This document shows, in pieces, positions 5,388 to 26,999 of a stretch of DNA of 43,909 nucleotides (position 1 is its first letter; every line of letters begins with the position of its first letter). A model generated the notes under the pieces. The model worked only from the letters and a program-made list of their open reading frames with translations, made no database searches and was not told the DNA's origin. This stretch comes from a virus (taxonomy: Duplodnaviria; Heunggongvirae; Uroviricota; Caudoviricetes). The stretch is taken from the IMG/VR virus record IMGVR_UViG_2778261176_000017, one strand, 5' to 3'. The translations under genes and the position numbers were made by a program.

Positions 5388-5488
5388 TGTTTTTTAACCT
5401 CAACTCAGATTAAAATTCGTTTTGTTCAGTGAATGATCTTGCCGGATACACACTGTTCATAGCCTGCGCCATACGCAGGCTATTTCTT

Positions 5489-5764
5489 TCAGATTTCACC
5501 TTTTAATTTCATTGCAATTAGAGTTGCCAGAAATTCGGCTTTTTTTTCTGTGGGCAGATTCTTTCCGATATGCACCAGGCACATTTTTTTGACACCTTCA
5601 TCAAGTGTTTTTACGTTGCCTGATGGACCATCGATATCAACCACAGTGAATGGGGTTTCTTTATTTTCTGTTTTAATTACGTAGCCAATGCGCTTTCCTT
5701 CCAGATTCACCTCGTGAACAATGTCATCGGTAGTTACAACAGTGGCTTCATAATTGGTAATCAT
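5489..5764 (-). CDS. racC: Rac RacC-like protein (91 aa)
   Basis: ATG at 5764. Sequence MITNYEATVVTTDDIV recalled as RacC; position upstream of recE. Confidence 0.7.
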   Translation of the reverse strand: MITNYEATVVTTDDIVHEVNLEGKRIGYVIKTENKETPFTVVDIDGPSGNVKTLDEGVKKMCLVHIGKNLPTEKKAEFLATLIAMKLKGEI

Positions 5765-5838
5765 GTTTTTCTCCTTAATTAAGGTTGAGCGAATACCTGC
5801 CATTTCTGGCATAAATTCAGTTTCGAATAGTCAATTAA

Positions 5839-6009
5839 TTAAAGTTCATGTGCCATCTGGTCTTTTTCGGCACAAGCTTCACTGCAATATTTTCTCGGTT
5901 CGTCTTTTGATAAAATCCCGTGCATGAAGTGAAGCATTCTTTCAATAGCTTTGCTTTCTTCAACGTCTTTTTTGCAAAGGTGGTAAGCACATTTTATTTT
6001 CTTAGTCAT
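5839..6009 (-). CDS. ydaE: Small Cys-containing protein YdaE-like (56 aa; not in the supplied ORF track)
   Basis: Hand translation of the minus strand gives [60 protein letters not shown] sits 8 nt upstream of ATG 6009; stop TAA at 5841..5839. Lies between racC and kilR as in Rac. Confidence 0.55.
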   Translation of the reverse strand: MTKKIKCAYHLCKKDVEESKAIERMLHFMHGILSKDEPRKYCSEACAEKDQMAHEL

Positions 6010-6230
6010 CACCATGACTCCGCCTTTACAGGTAAACCATCACGACCGAGGAAGACTTTAATCATGCGGTCAGTAATGCATGTTTTTGTGGTCAGGTTAC
6101 GAATATATAGTTTTCGCTTTTTAATATTGTTTGCCGAGGCAATATATGTCCGGCCTTCATGAAGAACATAATCGCCAGGAGTCACACACTGACGTGGTAT
6201 TTCATCAGTTCCGAAGTGATGTGCAATCAT
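6009..6230 (-). CDS. kilR: Cell-division inhibitor KilR (73 aa)
   Basis: ATG at 6230. Sequence [35 protein letters not shown] recalled as Rac KilR. Confidence 0.8.
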
Positions 6231-6671
6231 AATTATCTCCATTTTTACAAATGAACTTTGTTGATGCGGTGCCTGGTGCCTCCAGGTGACTGCAACCAGT
6301 TAACAATTACAGTCGGCTTTCCCACCCAAACCAATAAGGACTAACATGACTTTTAACTGTGCCACGTGCGCTTAGCCGCATTCACCGCATCACAAAATTC
6401 ACTTTAAAAAGGGCGGACATCAGCCGAACTTCAAGAAAAAAACTGATGCCGCCAGGACTACACACAGCAATGTCGTTATTTACAACCGGAGGCGCACTCC
6501 CACCATTTAAATTTAACAGACAAGACCGACTCTTTATGGATATCGGAAATGCGCCTTCGTGTTGTGCCCGGTTTTATTTCACCACCTCCGGGCTTCGGTG
6601 GTCTCGGCTATACCCCTACAGCGAGAGCTTGTGTTAACATTTCAATACCCTTACAGTTGAGAGTTATTGAT

Positions 6672-7160
6672 ATGTTGGATGTATTTACTCCATTGTTGAA
6701 ACTTTTTGCTAACGAGCCACTCGAAAGACTTATGTATACGATTATCATTTTTGGTCTCACTCTCTGGCTGATACCGAAAGAGTTTACTGTCGCATTCAAT
6801 GCTTATACTGAAATACCTTGGCTCTTTCAGGTTATCGTTTTTGCCTTTTCTTTCGTGGTCGCCATTTCCTTATCAAGATTGCGAGCACGTATTCAAAAGC
6901 ATTATTCATTACTACCAGAGCAACGAGTATTGCTTCGTTTATCTGAGAAAGAAATCGCTGTATTTAAAGATTTCCTTAAAACAGGAAATCTTATTATCAC
7001 TTCTCCTTGCCGTAACCCGGTTATGAAAAAATTAGAACGGAAGGGCATCATTCAACATCAGAGTGATAGCGCAAACTGTTCTTATTATCTCGTCACCGAA
7101 AAATACTCCCATTTTATGAAGTTATTCTGGAACAGCAGGAGTAGACGTTTTAATCGTTAG
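6672..7160 (+). CDS. sieB: Superinfection exclusion protein B (162 aa, membrane protein)
   Basis: ATG at 6672 inside the longer track ORF. Hydrophobic N-terminal half; sequence MLDVFTPLLKLFANEPLERLMYTIIIFGLTLWL recalled as SieB. Confidence 0.85.
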   Translation: MLDVFTPLLKLFANEPLERLMYTIIIFGLTLWLIPKEFTVAFNAYTEIPWLFQVIVFAFSFVVAISLSRLRARIQKHYSLLPEQRVLLRLSEKEIAVFKDFLKTGNLIITSPCRNPVMKKLERKGIIQHQSDSANCSYYLVTEKYSHFMKLFWNSRSRRFNR

Positions 7161-7312
7161 CTTACTGTGTGCTTCTCCAACCATCGGCGCGCACCAGTTT
7201 CGGTTTTAAATGTTTTGCTTTTTGTATACGTCATCGCGGTGAACGTTCCATCCTGGTTGGGGAACACACCGCACACCAGGGATTCGTTGTTGCCGAGGTC
7301 GATTTTTTGCAT
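7157..7312 (-). CDS. ydaG: Small protein YdaG-like (51 aa; not in the supplied ORF track)
   Basis: Hand translation gives MQKIDLGNNESLVCGVFPNQDGTFTAMTYTKSKTFKTETGARRWLEKHTVS; ATG at 7312, stop TAA at 7159..7157. Confidence 0.55.
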   Translation of the reverse strand: MQKIDLGNNESLVCGVFPNQDGTFTAMTYTKSKTFKTETGARRWLEKHTVS

Positions 7313-8276: not shown

Positions 8277-8519
8277 ATGAACAAAATTTCAACATATCGA
8301 AAACAACTTGGTCTGTCTCAAAGACAATTCGCTGTTCAGCTAGGGTGGATACAAAGCCGACTGGCAAATTACGAAGCAAATTTTCGTACCCCTGGGCTAG
8401 AGGAGTGCAGAAAAATTGTTTCCACCCTTAATCGGCTTGGTGCTCATTGTGGACTTGACGATGTATTCCCCCCAGACGGTAAGCATAGCGAAAACAGCAT
8501 AGGAGCGGTTGATTCATGA
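8277..8519 (+). CDS. ydaS: Cro-like HTH regulator YdaS (80 aa)
   Basis: HTH segment LGLSQRQFAVQLGWIQSRLANYEA. GGAGG RBS at 6 nt spacing. Divergent from the repressor gene. Confidence 0.8.
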   Translation: MNKISTYRKQLGLSQRQFAVQLGWIQSRLANYEANFRTPGLEECRKIVSTLNRLGAHCGLDDVFPPDGKHSENSIGAVDS

Positions 8520-8938
8520 AAATCAGGCATGAGCACATCGAATCAGTGTTGTTTGCCCTGGCAGCCGAAAAAGGGCAGGCATGGGTAGCCAATGCAATTA
8601 CTGAAGAATATCTGCGCCAGGGGGGCGGCGAATTGCCCCTGGTTCCAGGCAAGGACTGGAACAATCAGCAGAATATCTATCACCGTTGGTTGAAAGGTGA
8701 AACGAAAACGCAAAGAGAAAAAATTCAGAAGCTGATCCCAGCAATTCTGGCAATCCTTCCGCGCGAGCTGCGTCACCGACTCTGCATCTTCGATACCCTG
8801 GAACGCCGTGCATTACTGGCGGCGCAGGAAGCGTTGAGTACGGCAATTGATGCGCATGATGATGCAGTCCAGGCCGTTTACCGTAAAGCATATTTCAGCG
8901 GCGGTGGGTCGCCCGGCGATTCTGTCGTAGTGCATTGA
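8516..8938 (+). CDS. ydaT: YdaT (CII-like / toxic early protein, 140 aa)
   Basis: ATG overlaps the ydaS stop (ATGA). AGGAGCGG RBS. Sequence MKIRHEHIESVLFALAAEKGQAWVANAI recalled as Rac YdaT. Confidence 0.8.
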   Translation: MKIRHEHIESVLFALAAEKGQAWVANAITEEYLRQGGGELPLVPGKDWNNQQNIYHRWLKGETKTQREKIQKLIPAILAILPRELRHRLCIFDTLERRALLAAQEALSTAIDAHDDAVQAVYRKAYFSGGGSPGDSVVVH

Positions 8939-9016
8939 TTGAAATTAATCGTGCCGGACTGTTTTGTTCGGTATCAGTTAAATGTAACGCTTACAGCGTT
9001 ACAAGGTGAAAACAAT

Positions 9017-9805
9017 ATGGCTTCAAACTGGATAAAGCTCGAGGTTATTACGCCGGATAAGCCGGAAATATTCAGGCTTGCTGAGATTCTGAATATTGAT
9101 CCAGATGCCGCATTAGGGAAAGTCATTCGCTTCTGGGCATGGGCGGATCAACAAATGATAGACGGTAACGCAGAGTGTAACGCTCGCGGCGTTACAAAAA
9201 GTGCAATAGATCGCATCACTTTTATGGCTGGTTTTGCTGATGCGTTAATTCAGGTTGGATGGCTGGTCGAAAATAACGGTGGGCTTTCTCTACCTAACTT
9301 TGAACGTCATAACGGAAAAAGCTCTAAAAAACGGGCGATTACAAACGAGAGGGTTACAAAAATACGCGAACTGAAACGAAAAGGTAACGCTGCCAGCGTT
9401 ACACAAACGGATCAAAAAGCGTTACCAGAGGAAGAGGAAGAGGAAGATATAAATACTGATCTCCCCCTAAATCCCCCTCGCCAAAAACGAGCATCTAAAA
9501 AATTCGAGCCGGAGGCTATTGAGTTGCCCGATTGGTTGCCGGAAACACTCTAGCATGAGTGGGTCCGGTTCAGGCAGGCATTGCGAAAACCGATTCGAAC
9601 GGAGCAGGGCGCTAACGGGGCGATACGGGAGCTGGAAAAATTCCGCCAGCAGGGTTTTACCCCTGAGCAGGTGATTCGACACAGCATCGCCAATGAATAC
9701 CAGGGCTTGTTCGCGCCGAAAGGTGTTAGGCCTGAGACGTTGCTCAGACAGGTTAACACCGTCTCGTTGCCGGACAGTGCGATCCCGCCAGGCTTCAGGG
9801 GGTAA
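9017..9805 (+). pseudogene. ydaU: YdaU-like replication gene interrupted by an in-frame amber codon (TAG 9551..9553)
   Basis: Track ORFs 8939..9553 and 9581..9805 are in the same frame, separated only by TAG at 9551..9553. The downstream part has no ATG or RBS of its own. ATG at 9017 has an AAGGTG RBS. Whether a reference YdaU reads through this position was not verified. Confidence 0.5.
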
Positions 9806-9811
9806 CGAACC

Positions 9812-10558
9812 ATGAAAAATATTGCGACAGGCGGCGTTCTAGAACGCATCCGCCGACTGACCCCGCCACATGTAACCGCCCCATTCAGAACGGTAGCGGA
9901 GTGGCGCGAGTGGCAACTTGCTGAAGGCCAGAAACGTAGCGAGGAGATCAACCGCCTGAATCGCCAGTTGCGGGTGGAAAAAATTCTGAATCGCTCAGGC
10001 ATCCAGCCGTTGCACCGTAAATGCTCGTTTGCGAATTACCAGGTGCAGAACGACGGTCAGCGATACGCGTTGAGCCAGGCGAAATCTATCGCTGATGAAC
10101 TGATGACCGGATGTACAAATTTTGCGTTCAGCGGAAAACCTGGTACCGGAAAAAACCATCTGGCGGCGGCTATCGGGAATCGTCTGCTGAAAGATGGCCA
10201 GACAGTGATTGTGGTTACCGTGGCTGATGTCATGAGTGCTCTACACGCCAGCTATGACGAAGGGCAATCAGGCGAAAAATTTTTGCGGGAACTGTGCGAA
10301 GTGGATCTGCTGGTTCTTGATGAAATTGGCATTCAGCGCGAGACAAAAAACGAGCAGGTGGTACTGCACCAGATTGTTGATCGCCGGACAGCGTCGATGC
10401 GCAGCGTGGGGATGCTGACAAACCTGAACTATGAGGCCATGAAAACATTGCTCGGCGAGCGGGTTATGGATCGCATGACCATGAACGGCGGGCGATGGGT
10501 GAATTTTAACTGGGAGAGCTGGCGTCCGAATGTCGTCCAGCCAGGAACTGCGAAGTAA
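9812..10558 (+). CDS. ydaV: DnaC/IstB-like replicative helicase loader (248 aa)
   Basis: Walker [16 protein letters not shown] and Walker B-like LLVLDEIG; position after the initiator gene. Confidence 0.85.
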
Positions 10559-10580
10559 TTTTTATCGGGAGGAAATTTTA

Positions 10581-11342
10581 ATGGAGACTGTTTTTGACGC
10601 ACTGAAAGCAATGGGAAAAGCCACATCCATAGAACTTGCTGCGCGACTTGATATCAGTCGTGAAGAAGTGCTGAACGAACTATGGGAACTGAAAAAAGCT
10701 GGTTTCGTTGATAAAAGCGCGTACACCTGGCGTGTGGCTGATAACAACGTTCAGCAGGAACAGCCAATGCAGGCAGAACTGCCGGAAGAAACCACCACGG
10801 CAACAGTAGCGAAAATCTCAGAGTGCGATTTAACCGCGACGATTGAACAACGTGGACCACAAACGGCGGATGAACTGGCTACGCTGTTCGGTACCACATC
10901 CCGCAAAGTTGCTTCAACGCTGGCTATGGCAATCAGCAAAGGACGCCTGATTCGCGTAAATCAGAACGGTAAATTTCGTTACTGCATACCGGGCAATAAT
11001 TTACCAGCAGAGCCGAAAGCTGCATCGGTAACGGAAACTGATTTTAAAGCCTTTCCTCAGCCAGCAGGTTTTGCGTTGCCGTTACAGAAAGATGCAACAC
11101 AGGAAGATATTAAAACAGAAACTGTGGCGGACATTGTGCAGTCGCTGCCATCGTTTACCGAAACGTGGGTGGATGACCTGATTTTACCATCGCTGCACAT
11201 GGCAAACCGTGAGCTGCGCCGGGCGAAAAATCATGTCCAGAAGTGTGAGCGTGTCTGCGCCGCGCTGCGGGAGCTGAACAAGTACCGGGATATTGTTCGA
11301 CAGATTGTCGACTCCTCCAGTCGTATTGTGTCGGAAAAGTGA
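10581..11342 (+). CDS. Hypothetical protein (253 aa), possibly YdaW-like, predicted winged-helix domains
   Basis: GGGAGG RBS at 10567..10572 before ATG 10581. Charged helical N-terminus resembling a wHTH; no catalytic motif recognised. Confidence 0.55.
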
Positions 11343-12182: not shown

Positions 12183-13223
12183 ATGAAAGCAATTGATCTT
12201 TTTTGTGGCGCTGGTGGTTTGACAGTTGGTCTAAAAATGGCTGGCTTTGATGTCATATCAGCAATCGAAAAAGAAGCTATTGTATCTGAAACCTATAGAA
12301 TCAACCATCCGGATGTTAACTTAATAAATGGGGATATAAAAAATATATCACCAGATGAATTAATGAAACAATTAAAAATTCAGCAAGGTGAACTGGATTT
12401 GTTGGCAGGTTGTCCACCATGTCAAGGATTTTCTTCGTTAAGAACAAAAAATAAAACAGTAGCTGTCTTTGATGAGAGAAATGAACTTATTTTTAATTTT
12501 TTAGATTTTGTTAAAGTCTTTTTTCCAAAAGTTGTAATGGTTGAAAATGTACCAGCTTTGGCATTTGACGAACGAATAAACATGTTTACTTCGGAGCTTA
12601 AGAAATTGGGTTATCATATCGATGATAATTCAGTTTTAATTGAAGATGCTAGTAAATTTGGTGTGCCACAAAGACGTAAGCGCATGGTACTACTTGCTTC
12701 GCGATACGGAGAGCTTACTCGTGCTCAAAAAAATAGTAATTTAATAACTGTGCGCGATGCAATAGGCCATTTGGCTCGACCTGAAAATAGCAATGATCCG
12801 CTGCACAATATATTAGAAAGAAGAACTGAGAAGGTTAAAAAAATTATAAGTCTTATTCCTAAGGATGGGGGAAGCCGCTCTCAACTTCCTTACGAGTATT
12901 GGCTGCCATGTCATAAACGATATCCAAATGGTTTTCGCGATGTTTACGGTCGTATGAGGTGGGATGATGTAGCTCCAACTATTACGAGTGGATGTACTAA
13001 TCCTTCAAAAGGTCGTTTTTTACATCCTGAACAAGATAGAGCAATAACTCTTCGAGAGGCTGCATTATTACAAACTTTTCCGAGTGATTACTATTTTCCT
13101 ATTCAATTTGGTAAAGACAAGGCTGCTTTGATGATAGGGAATGCATTGCCCCCTGAATTCATTAAGCGTCATGCTGAACTTATCAAAGAACATATAACTA
13201 AAAACGAGGCGGATTATGGATAA
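12183..13223 (+). CDS. DNA (cytosine-5)-methyltransferase (346 aa)
   Basis: Conserved m5C-MTase motifs read directly: DLFCGAGG (SAM binding), PPCQGFS (catalytic Cys), ENV, QRRKR, GNALP. Visibly AT-rich coding sequence. Confidence 0.9.
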   Translation: MKAIDLFCGAGGLTVGLKMAGFDVISAIEKEAIVSETYRINHPDVNLINGDIKNISPDELMKQLKIQQGELDLLAGCPPCQGFSSLRTKNKTVAVFDERNELIFNFLDFVKVFFPKVVMVENVPALAFDERINMFTSELKKLGYHIDDNSVLIEDASKFGVPQRRKRMVLLASRYGELTRAQKNSNLITVRDAIGHLARPENSNDPLHNILERRTEKVKKIISLIPKDGGSRSQLPYEYWLPCHKRYPNGFRDVYGRMRWDDVAPTITSGCTNPSKGRFLHPEQDRAITLREAALLQTFPSDYYFPIQFGKDKAALMIGNALPPEFIKRHAELIKEHITKNEADYG

Positions 13224-15198
13224 TAAACTATTTCTAAATTTTCATGGTAGGATAATTGATCATTTAGGTATTCAAATGTATCAAAGTCCAACAGCAGCAA
13301 TAGCTGAAATGGTTTCTAATGCTTGGGACGCGGATGCAACCGAAGTTAATATTACACTACCCACGCATGAAAATAGAACTATTGTTATAAAAGACAATGG
13401 TATTGGAATGACATTTGAAGAATGTCAAAAGAAATTTCTTACGGTTGGTTTTGATAAAAGGAAAGATAATCCTGTAGCGAAGTCGAAATTATTCAATCGA
13501 GACTTAATGGGAAGAAAAGGTATCGGAAAGTTTGCTGGTTTTGGTATTGCTGAGATTATAGAAATTTGTACTACTAGCCAAGAAACAGGTGAAAAAACTA
13601 GTTTTACTTTGGATATAAATAAGATTAGATCGTCAGATGACTACGTTAAAACTGAAAGCATGGCTATTGATGTGACCTTCCGCACAGGCCCTTCAGAATT
13701 AGAAAAAGAAAATCATGGAACAACAGTAACACTTAAGTCATTGAAAATAAACAGATTATTAAATGAGTCTTCTTTTGCTACATCTATGGCGAGAAGGTTT
13801 GCGATCAATTCTGGCGGCGATGAATTTTTAGTTCGTATTAATAATACCCCCATGCCAGTCGAAAATTTTCTTGCCACTGCAGAATATAGTTTTCCAAAAG
13901 ATTATACTGTAGATGAAAAACCTGATTCTCTTACGGAAATTGACAGTTTGGGGTATGGAAAAGAAATCGTTGATGGTTATGAGATAAAATGGAGAGTGTT
14001 TTTCTTAAAAGAAACAATCAAGGATGATGAGTTGCAAGGTATCTCGATTTACGCTCACAAAAAATTAGCACAAAGGCCGTTTATGTTTAACTTGACTGGA
14101 GGGTTGCCAAGTCAAAATGGTCCTGAATATATGACAGGGGCTGTAATTGCTGATTATTTGGATGAGTTTAATGATGATGTGATTTCTACTGAACGACAAA
14201 GATTGAATTGGAGTAGTCACCACCTTGCTAAATTAGAAGAGTGGGGACAGAAACGTGTTCGCGAATTATTAAAAATCTGGAAAGATCGGCGGGCAGATGA
14301 AAAAACCAAACTGATTGAAAGTAAAATTGATGATTTCAGAAGTAGGCTAGATAAACTAGGTGTAGAAAAAAAAACGGTTATAATGGCTTTGAAACGAATT
14401 GCATCAATCCAACAAATCGGTGCAGAGCAATTTAGGCATATAGGCAACTCTATCCTCACTGCATGGGAGGGAGGGCGTCTAAAAGAGCTTATAAGAAGCG
14501 TTGCTTCTGTTCCTGATATGGATGAAACGAAATTGCTTGAGATATTGATCGAAGCAAATACAATTCAGGCTTTACACACAGCAGAATCAGTTAAAGCTAA
14601 GCTTGATACTATAAGTGGTCTTGAGACTAGAATACGCACTAAAGAATTAGAAAATGCTGTTCGAGACTATATTGCGAAGAATCCTTGGCTGATAGCTCCA
14701 AAATGGGAGACTTATGCTATTGAGAAAAATGTCCAGCATATCGCTAGAGAAGCAGCAAAAGAATCAGACATTGAACACGATCCAAGCTTTAAAGGAAGGG
14801 TTGACTTAGTTCTTTCAAGTGGTGAACATTTGCTTGTACTTGAATTCATGAGGCCAGGGCTGAAAATAGATAAAGATCACATCAATCGCTTTGAGGAGTA
14901 TGTTAATACTTTCAGAGTTTATTTAGACTCTGCAACAGGAAGTCCATTCAAGCGAGTTTCCGGTTATCTAGTTGCTGATGATTTTTTAAAGAGAAATGCA
15001 ACGTTAAATATGAAACTGAAAACATTGAGAGAACAAGAAATGTATACATTAACTTGGGATGACCTTCTGTCTGATGCAAAGCGTCAATGGCGTGAGTTTT
15101 TAGAACACTTGTCTTCTCGTGCTCCCGAAGATCAGCGTATGAAAGAATTGTTATCTACAACTCCTGAGAAAGTGATAGATACCTCTGAAATTACTTAA
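13216..15198 (+). CDS. GHKL (Bergerat-fold) ATPase-domain protein, 660 aa, predicted ATP-dependent restriction/defence component
   Basis: N-terminal motifs EMVSNAWDA (N-box), DNGIGM (G1), GRKGIGKFAGFG (G2). ATG 13216 overlaps the MTase stop by 8 nt; GAGG RBS. C-terminal segment RVDLVLSSGEHLLVLEF is a possible, unverified nuclease core. Confidence 0.75.
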   Translation: MDNKLFLNFHGRIIDHLGIQMYQSPTAAIAEMVSNAWDADATEVNITLPTHENRTIVIKDNGIGMTFEECQKKFLTVGFDKRKDNPVAKSKLFNRDLMGRKGIGKFAGFGIAEIIEICTTSQETGEKTSFTLDINKIRSSDDYVKTESMAIDVTFRTGPSELEKENHGTTVTLKSLKINRLLNESSFATSMARRFAINSGGDEFLVRINNTPMPVENFLATAEYSFPKDYTVDEKPDSLTEIDSLGYGKEIVDGYEIKWRVFFLKETIKDDELQGISIYAHKKLAQRPFMFNLTGGLPSQNGPEYMTGAVIADYLDEFNDDVISTERQRLNWSSHHLAKLEEWGQKRVRELLKIWKDRRADEKTKLIESKIDDFRSRLDKLGVEKKTVIMALKRIASIQQIGAEQFRHIGNSILTAWEGGRLKELIRSVASVPDMDETKLLEILIEANTIQALHTAESVKAKLDTISGLETRIRTKELENAVRDYIAKNPWLIAPKWETYAIEKNVQHIAREAAKESDIEHDPSFKGRVDLVLSSGEHLLVLEFMRPGLKIDKDHINRFEEYVNTFRVYLDSATGSPFKRVSGYLVADDFLKRNATLNMKLKTLREQEMYTLTWDDLLSDAKRQWREFLEHLSSRAPEDQRMKELLSTTPEKVIDTSEIT

Positions 15199-15266
15199 TA
15201 GCTGTTCATCGTACTAAAAAGCTGCAGTAGTGCTGTGGACTCCCCAGCAATGGGCGAATAGAAAAG

Positions 15267-15322
15267 GCAGGCATAGTGTTTTGTGATTGCAACCAATTCA
15301 ATGAGATCATCTCTATGCCTGC
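15267..15322. repeat. Perfect 10-bp inverted repeat with 36-nt spacer
   Basis: GCAGGCATAG (15267..15276) and CTATGCCTGC (15313..15322), about 70 nt downstream of the ATPase stop. No U-tract follows directly. Confidence 0.5.
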
Positions 15323-16085
15323 TCGCCAAGTGTGACAGAATTTTTACCGCAATGCGTTAGCACCGCTTGATACTCCCCTACAAAATGCTTTGCCGGATGC
15401 CACTATTGTTCTCATCAATAGCAATCGCTAGTGCTGGCAAGTATCGGATGTTATTTAGCCAGTACAGCCCATACAAAAAATCAAATCAAATGCGTTTACC
15501 AATTACTTGGAAATGAATTTCTTTACCACAGTATCCTACTAATTTTCAGAAATATTACTGCTATACAGACGAATTAGTTTTCTATTTATGGCATGATTTT
15601 TATACTCATCATACTGATTTGAAACGACATTTGATCTCCTCGCAGAGATGGATAGTTTCTTCGGAGAATCAGCAAAATGCAGAGTTAAAACAGATTTTTA
15701 TTAAAATTATTGCCGGAATATTAAAATCAAAAAGTAAGAGTAATCAGCGTCACCAATGAGGACATTTCAGACCGTTTGGTCCCAGCACATAATTAAAATT
15801 CGCACGGTACTGGGTTCCGTTTCTAATCACCTGGTAAGTGCTTAGAATATAGTGATAGTAAATTAGGTATTATATGCGAGCACTTTCAGCCCTTATGCAT
15901 TTTGCCTGCTGAATCTGAAGAGCAAAAAACAATCACTTATTTGATTATATGCATAACAATAAATAAAAGTCATTGTGCCTGCGCATAAAACAAACAAATA
16001 TACGGCGTGAAATAAATATTTTTAAGGTTAATATTTTTGTCTCTATGTGGATATAACCTCTTGTACTTATAAAGTTGGAGGCATC

Positions 16086-18150: not shown

Positions 18151-18226
<76 letters not shown>

Positions 18227-18229
18227 TAT

Positions 18230-18304
<75 letters not shown>

Positions 18305-20983: not shown

Positions 20984-21120
20984 AATCTTAACTACAATAT
21001 GATTCATTTTGATGATTGTTTCATAAGGAACAGTGAAGTAAGATCTAAGAGGAGTTAAATTTTATACAGTATAATCATAATATTGCAGCAAGGTGGTTAT
21101 AATTGAAAGAATATTTAGAT

Positions 21121-22578
21121 ATGAATACATCTCATGTAAGAGTTGTTACTCATATGTGTGGGTTCCTGGTTTGGCTCTATAGTCTTTCAATGTTGCCACC
21201 AATGGTTGTAGCATTGTTTTATAAAGAAAAAAGCCTGTTCGTTTTCTTTATAACTTTCGTTATATTTTTTTGCATTGGTGGCGGAGCGTGGTATACAACT
21301 AAGAAATCTGGCATTCAATTACGTACCCGTGATGGATTTATTATAATTGTAATGTTTTGGATTTTGTTTTCTGTTATTAGTGCATTCCCTTTATGGATTG
21401 ACTCAGAACTTAATTTAACGTTCATTGATGCTCTGTTTGAAGGGGTTTCTGGAATAACAACAACAGGAGCAACTGTAATTGATGATGTTAGTTCATTACC
21501 TCGGGCATATTTGTACTATCGGTCACAGTTAAATTTTATAGGTGGTTTAGGAGTTATTGTTCTGGCGGTTGCTGTATTGCCATTATTGGGTATTGGTGGT
21601 GCAAAGCTTTATCAGTCAGAAATGCCGGGGCCATTTAAGGATGACAAACTCACTCCCCGCCTGGCCGATACGTCACGGACACTGTGGATAACTTATTCTT
21701 TATTAGGTATTGCTTGTATTGTCTGTTATAGACTTGCAGGAATGCCTTTGTTTGATGCTATTTGTCACGGGATTTCCACAGTTTCGCTTGGTGGTTTCTC
21801 AACTCATAGCGAGAGTATCGGATATTTTAATAACTATTTGGTTGAGCTGGTGGCTGGTTCTTTTTCCCTGCTATCGGCTTTCAACTTCACTCTTTGGTAT
21901 ATTGTTATTAGCAGGAAAACGATAAAACCTTTAATCAGAGATATTGAACTTCGTTTCTTTCTGTTAATAGCCTTAGGGGTGATCATTGTTACCTCTTTCC
22001 AGGTCTGGCATATAGGTATGTATGACTTGCATGGAAGTTTTATTCATTCGTTTTTTCTTGCCAGCTCCATGCTCACTGATAATGGTTTAGCTACGCAGGA
22101 TTATGCAAGCTGGCCCACGCACACGATAGTGTTTTTGCTGTTGTCAAGTTTCTTTGGGGGATGTATAGGTTCAACTTGTGGTGGAATTAAGTCACTTCGA
22201 TTTCTTATACTTTTCAAACAAAGCAAACACGAGATAAATCAGCTTTCTCATCCCAGAGCGTTGTTGAGTGTAAATGTAGGAGGGAAGATAGTTACAGATC
22301 GTGTAATGAGGTCTGTATGGAGTTTCTTTTTTCTTTATACTCTCTTCACGGTGTTTTTTATACTGGTGTTAAATGGTATGGGATATGATTTTCTTACATC
22401 ATTTGCAACAGTGGCTGCATGTATTAATAATATGGGATTAGGTTTTGGGGCTACTGCATCGTCATTCGGAGTGCTTAATGACATTGCAAAATATTTAATG
22501 TGCATAGCTATGATTCTTGGTCGCCTTGAAATTTATCCTGTTATTATATTGTTTTCAGGTTTTTTTTGGCGCTCCTAA
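21121..22578 (+). CDS. trkG: Potassium uptake protein TrkG (485 aa, polytopic membrane protein)
   Basis: ATG at 21121; AT-rich, hydrophobic ORF matching recalled Rac-encoded TrkG. Confidence 0.9.
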   Translation: MNTSHVRVVTHMCGFLVWLYSLSMLPPMVVALFYKEKSLFVFFITFVIFFCIGGGAWYTTKKSGIQLRTRDGFIIIVMFWILFSVISAFPLWIDSELNLTFIDALFEGVSGITTTGATVIDDVSSLPRAYLYYRSQLNFIGGLGVIVLAVAVLPLLGIGGAKLYQSEMPGPFKDDKLTPRLADTSRTLWITYSLLGIACIVCYRLAGMPLFDAICHGISTVSLGGFSTHSESIGYFNNYLVELVAGSFSLLSAFNFTLWYIVISRKTIKPLIRDIELRFFLLIALGVIIVTSFQVWHIGMYDLHGSFIHSFFLASSMLTDNGLATQDYASWPTHTIVFLLLSSFFGGCIGSTCGGIKSLRFLILFKQSKHEINQLSHPRALLSVNVGGKIVTDRVMRSVWSFFFLYTLFTVFFILVLNGMGYDFLTSFATVAACINNMGLGFGATASSFGVLNDIAKYLMCIAMILGRLEIYPVIILFSGFFWRS

Positions 22579-22715
22579 TATATGGCTGATTTATAATTGT
22601 GAGTTTAATATTATGTTGACTCACTCATTGATCCAATACCTAACTTTACCAGCAACACCTCCGCCCCCAGTAGCACTGGCTGCTGGGGTGCGTTTTATTC
22701 ATAAAGCAAGGATGT

Positions 22716-23507
22716 ATGAGCGAGAAATTAAAGATAGTCTATCGCCCATTACAAGAATTGTCACCGTATGCGCACAACGCCAGGACGCACAGCCCTGAGC
22801 AGGTGGCACAACTGGTAGAAAGTATTAAGCAATTCGGCTGGACTAATCCGGTGCTGATTGACGAAAAGGGCGAAATTATTGCGGGTCACGGTCGTGTTAT
22901 GGCGGCTGAAATGCTCAAAATGGATTCTGTTCCGGTCATTGTTCTGTCTGGCCTGACGGATGAGCAGAAAAAGGCGTACCGCCTCGCAGATAATCGCCTG
23001 CCGATGAATGCTGGCTGGGATGAAGATCTGTTGCGGATGGAGCTGTCGGACCTAATCAATGCTGATTTTGATGTCTCCCTGACAGGCTTCATCCCGACAG
23101 AAATTGATGAACTGTTGACGGATGTTTTGCCCGGTACAGGAAATGAGGAGGAGCCGTATACGACGAAAATTGATACGCCTGTTTATGAGCCGTCGGACGG
23201 TAAACCGGATATCAGTGAACTGTACGACGATACGAAAACTCAGGAGCTGATCAGCCGGATACGTTCGGCGTCCCTTGATCCTGATATTGAGAAATTCCTC
23301 CTGTGTGCGGCAGAACGTCACACAGTGTTTAATTTCAGCAGAATTGCGGACTATTACGCTCATGCCCCCGCTGAAATTCAGTGCCTTTTCGAGGAGTCGG
23401 CGCTGGTGATCATTGATTATCAGCAGGCTATTGAAAATGGATTTGTCCGAATGACGCAGCGCATGGTGGAGATCATGCATGGTGGTGAGGAGGAGGAATA
23501 TGCGTGA
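22716..23507 (+). CDS. ParB-like (ParB/Srx fold) nuclease-domain protein (263 aa)
   Basis: N-terminal ParB N-domain signature (VYRPLQELSPYAHNARTH ... GHGR) with an acidic C-terminus. Lies upstream of the terminase genes. Confidence 0.7.
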   Translation: MSEKLKIVYRPLQELSPYAHNARTHSPEQVAQLVESIKQFGWTNPVLIDEKGEIIAGHGRVMAAEMLKMDSVPVIVLSGLTDEQKKAYRLADNRLPMNAGWDEDLLRMELSDLINADFDVSLTGFIPTEIDELLTDVLPGTGNEEEPYTTKIDTPVYEPSDGKPDISELYDDTKTQELISRIRSASLDPDIEKFLLCAAERHTVFNFSRIADYYAHAPAEIQCLFEESALVIIDYQQAIENGFVRMTQRMVEIMHGGEEEEYA

Positions 23508-24432
23508 TGATTTTTGCGCCTTTATTCTGACTCACGGGCGACCGGACAAAGTTCTGACTTACCGGACGTTGCGTCGTGCTGGCTATACCGGGAAAATTTT
23601 TATCGTTGTTGATGATGAAGATAAGACACGGCATCAGTACATGGCTGAATTTGGTGAACAGGTGCTGGTATTTTCCAAAGCCGATATTGCCAGTCGTTTT
23701 GACGAAGCCGATAATTTTGGTGACCGCCGCTCAATTTTTTACGCCCGTAATGCCTGTTTCGACCTGGCAAAACTGGTCGGGTGTAAATACTTCATTCAGC
23801 TCGATGATGATTATCACGAGTTCCAGTTTCGGGTGGATCGCAACTATGACCAGGCCTATTTCCCGATAAGGAAACTGGATGCGATCCTTTCTGAAATGCT
23901 GGCGTATTACGAATCAATACCCGCGCTTTCCATCGCTATGTCGCAGGGCGGGGATTTTCTTGGTGACAATGGCGGCCATGCTTCGTGGGTGAAACGCAAG
24001 GCAATGAACAGCTTTATCTGTTCGGTTGATCGACCGTTCTCATTCATGGGGCGCATTAACGAGGATGTGAATACGTACACGAATCTCGGTCGCTGTGGTG
24101 AATTGTTTATGACGATCGGTGCTGTCCAGTTAGGGCAGAAACAGACGCAGAAAAACAGCGGCGGAATGACCGAGCTGTATCTGGACTCCGGAACCTACGT
24201 TAAAAGTTTTTACTCCGTCATGTATTCGCCGTCGTGCGTAAAAATCTCACTGATGGGTGCCAGCCATAAACGCATTCACCATCAGGTCACCTGGAACAAC
24301 GCTGCAGTAAAAATCCTTCACGAAAAATACAGGAAGAAGACACCCTGCATATCAATGGGGGTGACAAATGATTCCGTATTCGAAAGTCGAGTCTCTGGCA
24401 GCGTGCCGGATGACTGCACAACAAATCGCTGA
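23500..24432 (+). CDS. Hypothetical protein (310 aa) with GT-A-like glycosyltransferase signature
   Basis: ATG 23500 overlaps the ParB-like stop (ATGCGTGATGA), with AGGAGG just upstream. N-terminal FILTHGRPD strand and IQLDDDY (DXD-like) about 90 residues later. The track ORF starts at 23479. Confidence 0.5.
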   Translation: MRDDFCAFILTHGRPDKVLTYRTLRRAGYTGKIFIVVDDEDKTRHQYMAEFGEQVLVFSKADIASRFDEADNFGDRRSIFYARNACFDLAKLVGCKYFIQLDDDYHEFQFRVDRNYDQAYFPIRKLDAILSEMLAYYESIPALSIAMSQGGDFLGDNGGHASWVKRKAMNSFICSVDRPFSFMGRINEDVNTYTNLGRCGELFMTIGAVQLGQKQTQKNSGGMTELYLDSGTYVKSFYSVMYSPSCVKISLMGASHKRIHHQVTWNNAAVKILHEKYRKKTPCISMGVTNDSVFESRVSGSVPDDCTTNR

Positions 24433-24619
24433 CGTTCTGGATGTTGATCTGAACCGACTGAAAGAAAATCGGGAAGCAATGACAGATTTTTATGCGGCCA
24501 TCCGTAAGGGCAGAGCGAAAGGTGAAGCCGAGTTACGAGCGGCATTGTTTAAGCTTGCCAGAAAAGGGGATGCCTTTGCTCTGCGCGAACTACTCAGGGT
24601 GGATAAAAATCAGGACTAA
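24368..24619 (+). CDS. Hypothetical small protein (83 aa), possible HTH
   Basis: GGGGG RBS before ATG 24368; overlaps the end of the previous gene; ends 3 nt before terS. Confidence 0.4.
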   Translation: MIPYSKVESLAACRMTAQQIADVLDVDLNRLKENREAMTDFYAAIRKGRAKGEAELRAALFKLARKGDAFALRELLRVDKNQD

Positions 24620-24622
24620 CTG

Positions 24623-25717
24623 ATGAGCAGACCGGACTGGGGGGCGTTGCAGCAGGAGTATATTGCTGAATACACCCGCTCCGGTATATCTCCGGTGGCA
24701 TGGTGTGAAGCAAGGGGACTGAACTACGCAACAGCCCGTCGTTACATCAAAAAAACTCCGAAAAATGCGCAGAAAGAAATGCGCAAAACTGCGCAAAAAA
24801 GTGCGCGAAAAAAAACTGCGCAGACTGCGCAAAGGCAGAACGGAAAATCTCAGGAAAAAAAGCCAGTATTCGATGCGGGCCTGAATGAGGGCGACGCGGA
24901 GGAATTTTCGTTCTGTCCCGATGAATTCGGCATTTCTGACCAGCAGGCTAAGTTTGCGATGCTTGTTGCTCAGGGTAAAAAGCCGACAGAGGCGTACCGA
25001 CTAGCCGGTTATGAGGGGCAAGGTGCGACAGCTAACAGCAACGCCAGTCGTATGCTTAGAAATGCCAGGGTTTATCGTGCTATCAGCTACTTCCGCAATC
25101 AGTACCAGAAACGCTATACCGCAGACCTGGATTTACTGGTGAGCCAGTTGATGGCCATTGTCCAGGCCGACCCCAATCAGTTGGCACAATTTCGCCGTGT
25201 TAACTGCCGTTATTGCTGGGGCGAGAATCATCTCTACCAGTGGCGTGATATTGCAGAATTCGATAAGGCTGCGGCACAGGCCTCCAGAGATGGTAAACCC
25301 GAGCCGGAATATGGAGGCCTCGGCTTTGTTGATAACGCCATACCCAATCCGGATTGCCCGAAGTGCTGCGGTGAGGGAACGGGACAGCTTTATATGGCTG
25401 ATACCACACTGCTTGATGGGGATGCGCGGCAATTATATGCAGGGTCAAAGCTCGGAAAATACGGTGTTGAGATCCTGCTGGAGGATAAGGCTGCCGCCCG
25501 GCGTGAATTGTTGCGTTTGCTTTCTGCTGGCGGGGCATTATGTGCAGATAAGCGGCTACAGGAACTGGAAATTGAACGGCGCAGAATAGAAAACCAGAAG
25601 CTGCGCAAAGAGATCGAAACGGTGGAGGATAATGAACATCCCCAGCCTGTGGCGATCAATATTAATGTGGTTGATGCCAGATTAAGGAGTGATGAAGATG
25701 ATCTCTCCGACGCTTAA
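24623..25717 (+). CDS. Terminase small subunit (364 aa) with C-terminal Cys-rich extension
   Basis: Central region AYRLAGYEG...ANSNASRMLRNARV is typical of phage small terminases. Basic N-terminal linker; CxxC...CxxCC further downstream. Immediately precedes the large terminase. Confidence 0.7.
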   Translation: MSRPDWGALQQEYIAEYTRSGISPVAWCEARGLNYATARRYIKKTPKNAQKEMRKTAQKSARKKTAQTAQRQNGKSQEKKPVFDAGLNEGDAEEFSFCPDEFGISDQQAKFAMLVAQGKKPTEAYRLAGYEGQGATANSNASRMLRNARVYRAISYFRNQYQKRYTADLDLLVSQLMAIVQADPNQLAQFRRVNCRYCWGENHLYQWRDIAEFDKAAAQASRDGKPEPEYGGLGFVDNAIPNPDCPKCCGEGTGQLYMADTTLLDGDARQLYAGSKLGKYGVEILLEDKAAARRELLRLLSAGGALCADKRLQELEIERRRIENQKLRKEIETVEDNEHPQPVAININVVDARLRSDEDDLSDA

Positions 25718-26999
25718 TGTGCCTCAGGCGCGATTTCTTTCAATGCCCCATAAATTTAAAGCCTATATTGCTGGTTTTGGCTCGGGCAAAACATGGGTTG
25801 GGTGTGGCGGCATATGCAAGGGGATTTGGGAGCATCCAGGTATAAATCAGGGATATTTTGCGCCAACGTATCCCCAAATTCGCGATATTTTTTACCCTAC
25901 AGTTGAAGAAGTTGCTGCTGACTGGGGATTGAACGTAAAAATTAATGAGGGAAATAAAGAGGTTCACTTTTATTACGGACGCCAGTATCGGGGAACCACT
26001 ATCTGCAGATCGATGGAGAAGCCACAAACGATCGTCGGTTTCAAAATTGGTAATGCGCTGGTGGATGAACTGGACATTTTGCCGAAGGAAAAAGCCAGAA
26101 CGGCGTGGCGCAAGATAATTGCGCGTATGCGTTATAAGATTGATGGACTTCGCAACGGTATTGACGTTACAACCACGCCGGAAGGATTCAAATTTGTCTA
26201 CGAGCAGTTTGTTAAAGCCGTGCGTGAAAAAACAGAGCTGGCCTCACTGTATGGTCTGGTGCAGGCATCTACTTTCGATAATGAAAAGAACCTGCCAGCA
26301 GATTACATTCCTTCACTTCTTGAATCATACCCTCCAGAGCTGATTAAAGCCTATCTTCTAGGACGGTTTACTAACCTGACAAGTGGTACTGTTTACCATC
26401 AGTTTTACCGGAAACTGAATAATTGCGAAGAAGTGGAGCAGCCAGGGGAGCCGATTTATATTGGGATGGATTTTAACGTTGGAAAGATGGCGGGAATCGT
26501 CCATGTGCTGCGTTTGGGGCTTCCATGTGCGGTAACTGAAATCATCAATGCCTACGATACGCCGGATATGATCCGCCTCATTAAAGAACGCTTCTGGCTG
26601 TATGACGGGCATGATTACCAGAAAGTGAGGGAGATTTATATTTATCCAGATGCTTCCGGAGATTCCAGAAAATCAAGTAACGCAAGTACGACGGATATAG
26701 CCCAGCTTAAGCAGGCAGGTTTTAACGTTGTGGTGAACAGCTCGAACCCGCCAGTAAAAGATCGCGTTAACTCAATGAATGCAATGTTCTGCAATGCCAA
26801 TGGTGAGCGTCGCTATAAAGTTAATGTGAAGCGTTGTCCGGTATATGCCGAATCTCTGGAGCAACAGGTCTGGGATGATAAGGGGGAGCCTGATAAAAAA
26901 TCTGGCAATGATCACCCGAATGATGCCGGAGGTTATTTCATCGTTAAGCAATTCCCTATTGTCAAACCGACCGGAAGAGTCACATCACTTCGGATTTAA
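25698..26999 (+). CDS. Terminase large subunit (433 aa from ATG 25698; alternative ATG 25692)
   Basis: Walker A AGFGSGKTW near the N-terminus. AGGAG (25685..25689) sits 8 nt before ATG 25698. Start overlaps the terS end. Confidence 0.85.
   Translation: MISPTLNVPQARFLSMPHKFKAYIAGFGSGKTWVGCGGICKGIWEHPGINQGYFAPTYPQIRDIFYPTVEEVAADWGLNVKINEGNKEVHFYYGRQYRGTTICRSMEKPQTIVGFKIGNALVDELDILPKEKARTAWRKIIARMRYKIDGLRNGIDVTTTPEGFKFVYEQFVKAVREKTELASLYGLVQASTFDNEKNLPADYIPSLLESYPPELIKAYLLGRFTNLTSGTVYHQFYRKLNNCEEVEQPGEPIYIGMDFNVGKMAGIVHVLRLGLPCAVTEIINAYDTPDMIRLIKERFWLYDGHDYQKVREIYIYPDASGDSRKSSNASTTDIAQLKQAGFNVVVNSSNPPVKDRVNSMNAMFCNANGERRYKVNVKRCPVYAESLEQQVWDDKGEPDKKSGNDHPNDAGGYFIVKQFPIVKPTGRVTSLRI

Follow-up and report, generated by a model that had tools for sequence, protein, structure and literature searches.

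Why should a prophage of Escherichia coli encode a ParB-like protein and a glycosyltransferase (GT) in two overlapping genes, just ahead of its packaging genes? This question is raised by the window analysed here, a 43,909-nucleotide stretch of DNA from a virus of the Caudoviricetes (IMG/VR record IMGVR_UViG_2778261176_000017), in which the cassette lies within an intact Rac-like prophage, in the order partner, GT, small HTH ORF, TerS and TerL (Table 1). We propose, with a probability of about one half, that the two genes encode one two-subunit DNA glycosyltransferase, the partner tethering the GT to DNA, and that the phage DNA is thereby glycosylated. A role in DNA modification had been suggested in an earlier note on this sequence, and it is the best-supported reading in view of the TAGT family to which the GT belongs, its pairing with the partner and the ParB module of the latter.

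Table 1. Coordinates of the cassette and of the neighbouring features in the window.
Feature	Position	Strand	Remarks
Terminator-like hairpin	22665..22688	+	10-bp stem with 7 GC pairs, then T-tail TGCGTTTTAT; separates trkG moron from cassette
Partner gene (full-length ynaK), 263 aa	22716..23507	+	ParB/Srx N-domain, helical linker, conserved peptide, CTD
ParB/Srx (ParB-CTPase fold) N-domain and helical linker	22716..23120	+	Partner residues 1-135
Uncurated "CTD" module	23121..23507	+	Partner residues 136-263; conserved disordered peptide, then helical domain
Translational-coupling junction (by layout)	23489..23507	+	GGAGG 23489-23493, GT ATG 23500, partner stop TGA 23505-23507
TAGT-family GT-A glycosyltransferase, 310 aa	23500..24432	+	Pfam PF20691; "GREB1-related protein" in PGAP
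Small HTH ORF	24410..24619	+	phrog_309, E 8.3e-23; coordinates from PGAP
TerS	24623..25717	+	Pfam Terminase_2 1.4e-8; phrog_51 1.9e-75
TerL	25698..26999	+	Pfam Terminase_6N 9.3e-32, Terminase_6C 7.5e-11; start per PGAP

The trkG moron upstream of the cassette was recognised by its match to Pfam TrkH (E 3.8e-144). The ORF of the GT runs from 23479/23500 to 24432 (+), and the start chosen by PGAP in near-identical genomes is the ATG equivalent to 23500, which yields 310 aa. At the junction (...GAGGAGGAGGAAT ATG CGT GA), the GT start overlaps the partner stop, as the earlier note had described, the overlap being 8 nt long, and the GGAGG is located 6 nt 5' of the start codon. Judged from the sequence, this is the typical layout of translational coupling, and overlapping partner and GT genes were also found in phi jlb1, HHTV-2, c5, NTR1 and a Porphyromonas gingivalis phage. 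The small HTH ORF, which comprises 69 aa (PGAP) or 83 aa (from ATG 24368) and is similar to a portion of a small terminase subunit, overlaps the 3' end of the GT gene. The cassette thus lies upstream of the terminase genes, as had been stated, but not immediately next to them, this ORF intervening before TerS.

The GT was clearly assigned to the TAGT family, by its match to Pfam PF20691 (E 6e-35, 121.5 bits for a cut-off of 27.5, covering profile positions 4-205 of 205) and to phrog_842 (1.5e-103). The motifs FILTHGRPD and IQLDDDY, from which a GT-A-like protein had been suspected, were located at residues 8-16 and 99-105, and R14, D102-D104 and N187-E188-D189 were invariant among 26 homologues, forming an R...DDD...NED motif. 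A GT-A nucleotide-sugar-transferase fold was borne out by the AF2 model, of which residues 185-310 constitute the low-confidence part: the top Foldseek matches in the PDB were exclusively GT-A enzymes (LH3, GnT-I, COLGALT1, SpsA and glycogenin), while TAGT proteins were matched in BFVD with TM scores of 0.7-0.8. Membership of a defence system was considered and rejected, PADLOC giving no match for the GT. The TAGT family includes the base-J glucosyltransferase, the T2/T6 beta-glucosyl-HMC-alpha-glucosyltransferase and GT-A enzymes associated with 5mYOX, the TET/JBP-type 5-methylpyrimidine dioxygenases, and its phage and kinetoplastid members described in the cited papers act on DNA bases (bioRxiv 10.1101/2023.12.21.572611; PMC13390438; PMC13216743).

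The partner carries a ParB/Srx N-terminal fold with the nucleotide-binding GxxR motif. The N-domain had been recognised earlier, and it indeed exceeded the Pfam ParB_N cut-off (E 1.2e-6, 28.9 bits for a cut-off of 26.3); phrog_620 was matched with 1.4e-90. The AF2 model comprises the N-domain (residues 1-100), helices (103-134), a low-confidence segment (136-160) and a helical part (166-255). A nucleotide-binding domain (NBD) is thus joined to the CTD through a helical segment and a disordered linker, and a DNA-binding domain is absent. A partition ParB of the ParABS type was considered and rejected: the match to TIGR00180 (38.5 bits) fell below the cut-off of 58.45, no HTH domain was found in the partner by Pfam, and no parA is annotated in the prophage. 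The N-module is homologous to that of DNA methyltransferases fused to a ParB N-domain (phrog_498 and PADLOC MTase_II; E 9.6e-51 and 2.4e-38), these profiles being matched, in their N-terminal parts, by partner residues 3-141 and 10-144 alone. It is therefore a portable accessory of enzymes which act on canonical DNA.

The C-terminal module is more conserved than the ParB N-domain. Its conserved peptide (Y148-x2-K151-x3-P155-x-Y157...P164), which is disordered, precedes a helical domain in which R201, H202, Y214, Q222, E226, S228 and D234 are near-invariant across 200 sequences. No Pfam family matched it above threshold, and no sequence relative was found in the PDB. The CTD family comprises 1189 representatives (50% clustering), with the domain C-terminal in every case, and the long members tested (340-433 aa) differ solely by N-terminal extensions to ParB_N. 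The CTD can also stand alone, as in a 139-aa protein encoded upstream of the GT in Vibrio phage pv27 (53% identity, E 3e-40). No description of the partner domain, or of a clamp-tethered GT adaptor, was found in the literature searched.

Among non-redundant GT clusters, which came from phages of Proteobacteria, Firmicutes, Actinobacteria, Bacteroidota and haloarchaea, 114 were testable, and in 110 of these the gene immediately preceding the GT bears this CTD. The earlier note had regarded a GT-A partner as unusual; according to this gene-neighbourhood survey, the pairing is on the contrary the rule for this GT subfamily. What accompanies the GT constantly is the uncurated CTD, the ParB N-domain being optional: a partner of the ParB-N plus CTD type was present in 72 clusters, with TerL no more than 4 kb downstream in 58 of them, and a standalone CTD in 38 (39 by a separate tally). 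Nine standalone-CTD clusters are located between PolA and the phage DNA polymerase III beta clamp, with clamp loader, DnaB, primase and RecA nearby. Tandem duplications (CTD-GT-CTD-GT) exist, while no CTD-GT (Rosetta-stone) fusion was seen among 245 loci. In Nocardia phage NTR1, the cassette stands in place of TerS, and the TAGT of the T4-like Aeromonas phage Aeh1 has no CTD partner. An association of ParB with TET/GT DNA-modification clusters has previously been published (PMC8256090, citing Iyer et al.; PMC13229309).

The N-terminus of the partner is thus exchangeable, a clamp-binding-like motif nearly always taking the place of the ParB N-domain in standalone partners. Standalone partners begin with tails of the MKQxx[LM]FG type; in the 32 residues before the motif, [LMI]F occurs in 29/33 standalone partners versus 7/60 ParB-fused linkers (Fisher p = 2e-13). 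Of 31 trimmed standalone tails, 18 have Qxx[LM]F among their first 12 residues and 29 have [LMI]F. We take the Qxx[LM]F tail to fit the beta-clamp-binding consensus QL[SD]LF, from which we infer that standalone partners may bind the clamp. This motif belongs to the standalone-CTD relatives and is absent from the 263-aa partner.

Both genes of the cassette are under strong purifying selection. Relative to related prophages, dN/dS was 0.09-0.14 for the partner and 0.06-0.12 for the GT, with dS saturated for distant pairs. The pair was present in 889 of 5426 complete E. coli genomes (~16%); in K-12, a ynaK remnant is all that stays.

From a mechanistic point of view, the 310-aa protein would be the catalytic subunit, a TAGT-family GT-A nucleotide-sugar transferase. 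We infer that it is physically bound by its partner, that its target is DNA and that the benefit is an anti-defence one. The C-terminal module, conserved peptide plus helical CTD, would bind the GT, and the ParB/Srx nucleotide-binding N-domain would bring the enzyme to double-stranded DNA or hold it there. The cassette is probably expressed with the late operon, and the phage DNA may be glycosylated after replication, before or during packaging. The likely gain would be protection in the next host against restriction or other DNA-targeting defences. Such an arrangement would parallel, by analogy, the activation of phage thymine dioxygenases by ParB-like proteins and the T4 alpha-glucosyltransferase on the gp45 clamp.

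The nature of the acceptor bears directly on this scheme. To our knowledge, every characterised TAGT enzyme acting on DNA needs a hydroxyl acceptor, and canonical DNA offers none. No TET/JBP or ThyS-type hydroxymethylase was found anywhere in the prophage. The annotated genes of phage c5 (31.8 kb) likewise include no TET/JBP or hydroxymethylase, its largest unannotated ORF being 209 aa. No acceptor-making enzyme was detected among the recurrent neighbours of the GT clusters, in a survey that covered recurrent rather than singleton neighbours and included no direct TET/JBP profile; a phmmer search with ThyA gave L146 as its sole match. The C5-methyltransferase encoded on the same DNA was considered as a source of 5mC and rejected: its gene is part of a distinct low-GC restriction-modification moron, in which it is paired with a BbrUII/HgiDII-type enzyme. 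This rejection also rests on the absence of a dioxygenase and on the Rac-type prophage of JNQH498, where an IS1-associated deletion removed the moron region and the ParB-GT cassette was kept. We know of no DNA modification reported in phages with the GT and CTD pair. A more specific form of the proposal, tentative and rather doubtful as it stands, is that CTD-partnered TAGT enzymes put sugar directly onto a canonical base, or onto another non-hydroxymethyl acceptor of phage DNA. This would constitute an undescribed modification, applied by means of an adaptor tethered through a ParB fold or the beta clamp, in many temperate and lytic phages including the Rac-like prophages of about one-sixth of E. 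coli genomes.

As no acceptor-making enzyme was found in the prophage, protein glycosylation stays a live rival, albeit an unlikely one. The GT would then modify the Tyr/Thr peptide of its partner, the terminase, the portal, the sliding clamp or a host factor, with the partner as substrate or targeting subunit. There is a precedent, since the TAGT-family domain of GREB1 O-GlcNAcylates ER-alpha (PMC7968844). Such an activity would also be in line with the lack of a hydroxyl acceptor in canonical DNA, no hydroxymethylpyrimidine pathway having been found, with Y148, T149 and Y157 in the disordered, near-invariant peptide of the partner, and with the presence of glycogenin, a self-glucosylating GT-A enzyme, among the fold matches. 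By contrast, the phage and kinetoplastid TAGT members in the papers cited above act on DNA. For a soluble protein target, it would be hard to explain the presence of DNA-tracking devices such as a ParB-fold domain and a clamp-binding-like motif, and the ParB module is also fused to DNA methyltransferases. Moreover, a single target would be needed in both bacteria and haloarchaea.

A hidden first step of a two-step hypermodification would reconcile the GT with known TAGT chemistry. An unrecognised enzyme would first produce a hydroxylated base (5hmU, 5hmC, 5-hydroxy-C or another) for the GT to act on, and this step could be supplied by the CTD, by the host or by a phage protein that escaped annotation. 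ParB-like proteins do go with 5mYOX and GT genes elsewhere (PMC13229309), and the CTD, better conserved than the ParB N-domain, possesses invariant polar residues (R201, H202, Y214, E226 and D234). We consider this explanation quite improbable.

The ParB-like protein could finally be a packaging accessory, recognising or nicking pac or cos, next to a GT that is an unrelated moron (e.g., for cell-surface glycan conversion) or the decaying remnant of a ParB-5mYOX-GT system; this reading, suggested by the position directly upstream of TerS/TerL in 58 of the 72 ParB-type clusters, by the TerS place occupied in NTR1 and by the ynaK remnant retained alone in K-12, is very improbable, since E. coli ETEC1716 has a 91%-identical TerS that works without the cassette (the small HTH ORF still upstream of it), the pair occurs in replisome clusters without a terminase, the near-universal GT-CTD coupling in Gram-negative, Gram-positive and archaeal viruses speaks against an envelope target, dN/dS of 0.06-0.14 and invariant catalytic residues speak against decay, and PADLOC did not match the GT. 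Assistance in pac recognition, the other role that the earlier note had put forward, was accordingly rejected on account of ETEC1716 and of the pairs in replisome clusters far from the terminase, and a decaying remnant on account of dN/dS.

If the two-subunit DNA glycosyltransferase is confirmed, a large class of "solitary" TAGT GTs would be explained, each enzyme having a second subunit that can be recognised by its uncurated domain; in one recent survey, solitary TAGT homologues were counted in 288 of the 753 phage genomes that encode a homologue of T-even-type glucosyltransferases (PMC13216743). The partner N-terminus would have the ParB-CTPase fold in some members and a clamp-binding peptide in others, and orphan phage ParB-fold proteins would serve a second type of client enzyme, the thymine dioxygenases being the first. 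This would suggest a general principle, in which phage DNA-modifying enzymes are made processive by tethering to DNA-tracking modules. The module occurs in ~16% of complete E. coli genomes and also in phages of lactobacilli and P. gingivalis, so that any influence on restriction, CRISPR or sequencing behaviour would matter in practice.

Among known systems, methyltransferases fused to a ParB N-domain occupy the same slot upstream of the terminase in many temperate phages. Their C-terminal part is the fused methyltransferase, whereas a CTD and a separate GT are found here. The T2/T6 beta-glucosyl-HMC-alpha-glucosyltransferase and the 5mYOX-associated GT-A enzymes share with the present GT the PF20691 family, the GT-A fold and an R...DDD...ED motif, and the beta-glucosyl-HMC-alpha-GT of Klebsiella phage PKO111 matches it with E 5.5e-6. 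However, these enzymes transfer sugar onto 5hmC or onto a first sugar, an acceptor produced by a dCMP hydroxymethylase, or by a C5-methyltransferase and a TET enzyme, encoded nearby; here, no acceptor-making enzyme was found and the CTD partner is obligate. The kinetoplastid JGT, compared by description, is also a TAGT-family GT-A enzyme acting on DNA (bioRxiv 10.1101/2023.12.21.572611; PMC7968844), but its acceptor is the 5hmU produced by JBP1/2, while no thymine dioxygenase was found in the prophage. The C-terminal GT domain of GREB1 is of the same family, but GREB1 is a eukaryotic protein of 1949 aa, and the substrate that it O-GlcNAcylates is a protein (PMC7968844).

Two further systems illustrate the tethering itself. 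T4 alpha-GT co-purifies with the gp45 clamp (PMC13216743) and is thus a DNA glycosyltransferase tethered to a DNA-tracking ring, to which the clamp-binding-like motif and the beta-clamp gene neighbour of the standalone partners may correspond; it is nevertheless a GT-B enzyme which binds the clamp itself, while a separate adaptor is proposed here. In the 5mYOX176/ParB176 system, ParB176 has a ParB-like NBD joined to a CTD through a short helical segment and a disordered linker, and lacks a DNA-binding domain; its gene lies next to that of a post-replicative DNA-modifying enzyme, near the terminase, and the protein is required for activity on dsDNA (PMC13229309). Compared by description, our partner has the same architecture, with a glycosyltransferase as its client instead of a dioxygenase.

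The window holds a complete Rac-type lambdoid prophage of E. coli, whose integration site adjoins ttcA and whose genes run in the order intR, recET, kilR, sieB, immunity and replication genes, a Q-like antiterminator, two tRNAs, lysis genes, a trkG moron and the late operon. The ParB-like/glycosyltransferase (GT) pair forms the beginning of this late operon. Its two ORFs share 8 nt (ATGCGTGA), with GGAGG lying 6 nt 5' of the GT start, in line with the overlapping pair described in an earlier note, which had placed it directly upstream of the terminase; the pair does precede TerS and TerL, but a small HTH ORF intervenes. Elsewhere in the prophage, a low-GC moron combines the gene of a C5 DNA cytosine methyltransferase (TIGR00675, E 2.1e-45) with an overlapping one for a BbrUII/HgiDII-family GHKL-ATPase restriction enzyme of 660 aa (NF050001, E 2.5e-89), and appears to be a type II restriction-modification system carried by the prophage and unrelated to the GT cassette.

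Features of the prophage and, where a locus is named, of related surveyed loci
Feature	Position	Strand	Remark
ORF in replication-initiator position	8939-9550	+	204 aa; no Pfam match at E <= 0.001
Restriction-modification moron	12183-15198	+	35% GC
tRNA-Thr(TGT)	18151-18226	+	between Q-like gene and lysis cassette
tRNA-Gly(TCC)	18230-18304	+	between Q-like gene and lysis cassette
trkG potassium-transporter moron	21103-22578	+	37-42% GC; between lysis genes and late operon
Strong terminator-like hairpin	22665-22688		3' of trkG, just 5' of the ParB-like gene
Partner ORF (ParB-like)	22716-23507	+	263 aa
GT ORF	23500-24432	+	310 aa
C-terminal extension of GT	24368-24432		~20 aa; overlaps beginning of following ORF
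Small HTH ORF	24410-24619		3' of GT; then TerS, TerL, portal
L247 (E. coli ETEC1716 prophage)	4570-7234		small HTH ORF and TerS, no cassette
L150 (viral contig)	8412-10852		tandem duplication of module
L163 (viral contig)	8776-10876		tandem duplication of module
L146, ThyS-like gene	14495-15970		492 aa; Thymidylat_synt and PterinBD-DUF4346 domains

The GT matches Pfam PF20691 (TET-associated glycosyltransferase, TAGT) with 121.5 bits against a cut-off of 27.5, as well as phrog_842 (E 1.5e-103), and is labelled 'GREB1-related protein' by PGAP. Its AF2 model (mean pLDDT 69.5) is confident over residues 1-180 and poor over 185-310; PDB fold matches were GT-A enzymes only (LH3, GnT-I, COLGALT1, SpsA, glycogenin), while BFVD matches were viral TAGT proteins (TM 0.7-0.8). 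Residues R14, D102-D104 and N187-E188-D189 are invariant among homologues, and the motifs FILTHGRPD and IQLDDDY, from which a GT-A-like pattern had been read, are both present. Given the family match, the fold and model matches and these invariant residues, the nucleotide-sugar transferase fold on which that proposal depended stands, and the protein is a member of the known TAGT family by sequence, modelled fold and catalytic motif. Residues 185-265 are among the best conserved of the family (QTQ..GGMT.LY..GTY.KSFY...PS...R.HH..W), yet have a pLDDT <50, and may fold only with partner or substrate; a separate family, phrog_31222, spans residues 206-287. Other enterobacterial homologues (287-290 aa) lack the C-terminal extension.

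The partner protein scores 28.9 bits against Pfam ParB_N (cut-off 26.3), confirming the ParB/Srx N-domain noticed earlier. In its GHGR motif, the counterpart of GERR in Noc and ParB, the phosphate-binding Arg is retained and Glu is replaced by His, and residues 10-144 share homology with the N-terminal module found in fusions of ParB to DNA methyltransferases (phrog_498 9.6e-51; PADLOC MTase_II 2.4e-38). A partition ParB was ruled out, the protein being below the TIGR00180 cut-off, without HTH and without a parA partner. An alignment with the proteins encoded just before the GT in three other viruses (Lactobacillus phage phi jlb1, haloarchaeal virus HHTV-2, Nocardia phage NTR1) placed the highest conservation in the C-terminal half. 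This C-terminal domain (CTD) comprises a peptide, Y-T-x-K-x3-P-x-Y-E-P, disordered in the AF2 model, followed by a helical remainder (AAxRH...YYAH...E.Q.L.E.SALVIID); it has no Pfam family above threshold, no PDB sequence relative and no convincing fold match. The family counts 1189 representatives at 50% clustering, C-terminal in every one, and the GT gene of Vibrio phage pv27 is preceded by one for a standalone CTD (139 aa, 53% identical, E 3e-40). The CTD is the predicted real partner of the GT.

This pairing is widespread. Scanning 240 related loci with profiles built in this analysis gave 116 GT clusters at 85% identity; among the 114 with room upstream, 110 had a CTD-bearing gene directly upstream, of the ParB-N + CTD type in 72 and standalone in 38. 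The other four comprise the TAGT of T4-like Aeromonas phage Aeh1 and three second GT copies, all divergent, that immediately precede a CTD-GT pair. Terminase-adjacent overlapping pairs occur in phages of E. coli, L. gasseri, L. delbrueckii (phage c5, directly 3' of cos), Nocardia, Porphyromonas gingivalis and Haloarcula. With such frequent pairing across very distant hosts, the suggestion that a GT-A partner is unusual found no support; ParB association with TET/GT clusters in general has also been published already (PMC8256090; PMC13229309). Tandem arrays exist as well: replisome-type viral contigs carry duplicated modules (CTD-GT-CTD-GT or GT'-CTD-GT) with divergent second copies, which suggests two specificities, each needing its own partner.

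The two partner types occupy different settings. ParB-type partners lie upstream of the terminase, and in 58 of their 72 clusters TerL follows within 4 kb. Nine standalone-CTD clusters are flanked by DNA polymerase A on one side and a phage DNA pol III beta clamp on the other, near clamp-loader subunits, DnaB, primase and RecA. Standalone partners begin with MKQINLFG, MKQLDLFG, MKQFDLFG, MPLFD and similar peptides; [LMI]F is found in the 32 residues before the conserved peptide in 29/33 of them, against 7/60 ParB-fused linkers (Fisher p = 2e-13), and Qxx[LM]F within the first 12 residues of 18/31 standalone tails, a few of these 31 coming from called ORFs trimmed to the nearest Met. These tails fit the bacterial beta-clamp-binding consensus, QL[SD]LF. 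Partners with an MKQxx[LM]FG start stand directly upstream of the GT at L176, L185, L186, L191, L200 and other loci, several adjoining beta-clamp and clamp-loader genes. We infer an adaptor role for the partner: the CTD would hold the GT, and the N-terminus, whether a domain of ParB-CTPase fold or a peptide that binds the clamp, would act as a DNA-tracking device. The best explanation, with a probability of about 0.5, is a post-replicative DNA glycosyltransferase of two subunits, one of them an adaptor that tethers it to DNA.

Characterised TAGT DNA enzymes add sugar onto 5hmC, 5hmU or a first sugar (10.1101/2023.12.21.572611; PMC13390438; PMC13216743). No TET/JBP or ThyS-type gene was found in the prophage by annotation and a Pfam scan of ten non-structural ORFs, nine of which match other families (the exception being the 204-aa ORF), nor among the annotated genes of phage c5 (31.8 kb), which has no unannotated ORF >209 aa. 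None of the recurrent neighbour families of the surveyed GT loci is a dioxygenase or hydroxymethylase, and a ThyA search across these loci matched at L146 only, the sole one with a ThyS-like gene close to the pair (~4 kb downstream). Since no acceptor source was found, the GT would act on something new on DNA, on a protein, or on an acceptor made by an unrecognised hydroxylase. Protein glycosylation, for which the TAGT-family GREB1 offers a precedent (PMC7968844), seems unlikely, at perhaps one chance in five. A hidden hydroxylation step supplying the acceptor is more doubtful still. The CTD itself is an improbable hydroxylase, being a small helical module with a single invariant His.

Purifying selection on the two genes is strong (dN/dS 0.06-0.14 vs related prophages). 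The pair is near-complete in 889/5426 complete E. coli genomes, with remnants, e.g. K-12 ynaK, in a further ~690. In E. coli ETEC1716, the small HTH ORF is kept beside a 91%-identical TerS and the cassette is absent; the cassette is therefore accessory rather than part of pac recognition, the role that the earlier note had envisaged as one possibility. It is very improbable that the pair is a packaging accessory, a moron or a remnant. The ETEC1716 prophage has in the portal position a gene whose annotation, 'anti-CBASS protein Acb1 family', may be wrong.

The GT lacks the usual genomic hallmark of the TAGT family, an adjacent acceptor-forming enzyme. New elements here are this absent acceptor pathway, an obligate uncurated partner domain, and the exchange of the ParB domain for a clamp motif. 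The adaptor model fits two precedents, since gp45 clamp co-purifies with T4 alpha-glucosyltransferase (PMC13216743) and a phage thymine dioxygenase needs a ParB-like protein to act on dsDNA; such ParB-like proteins share with the partner an NBD-linker-CTD layout without a DNA-binding domain (PMC13229309).
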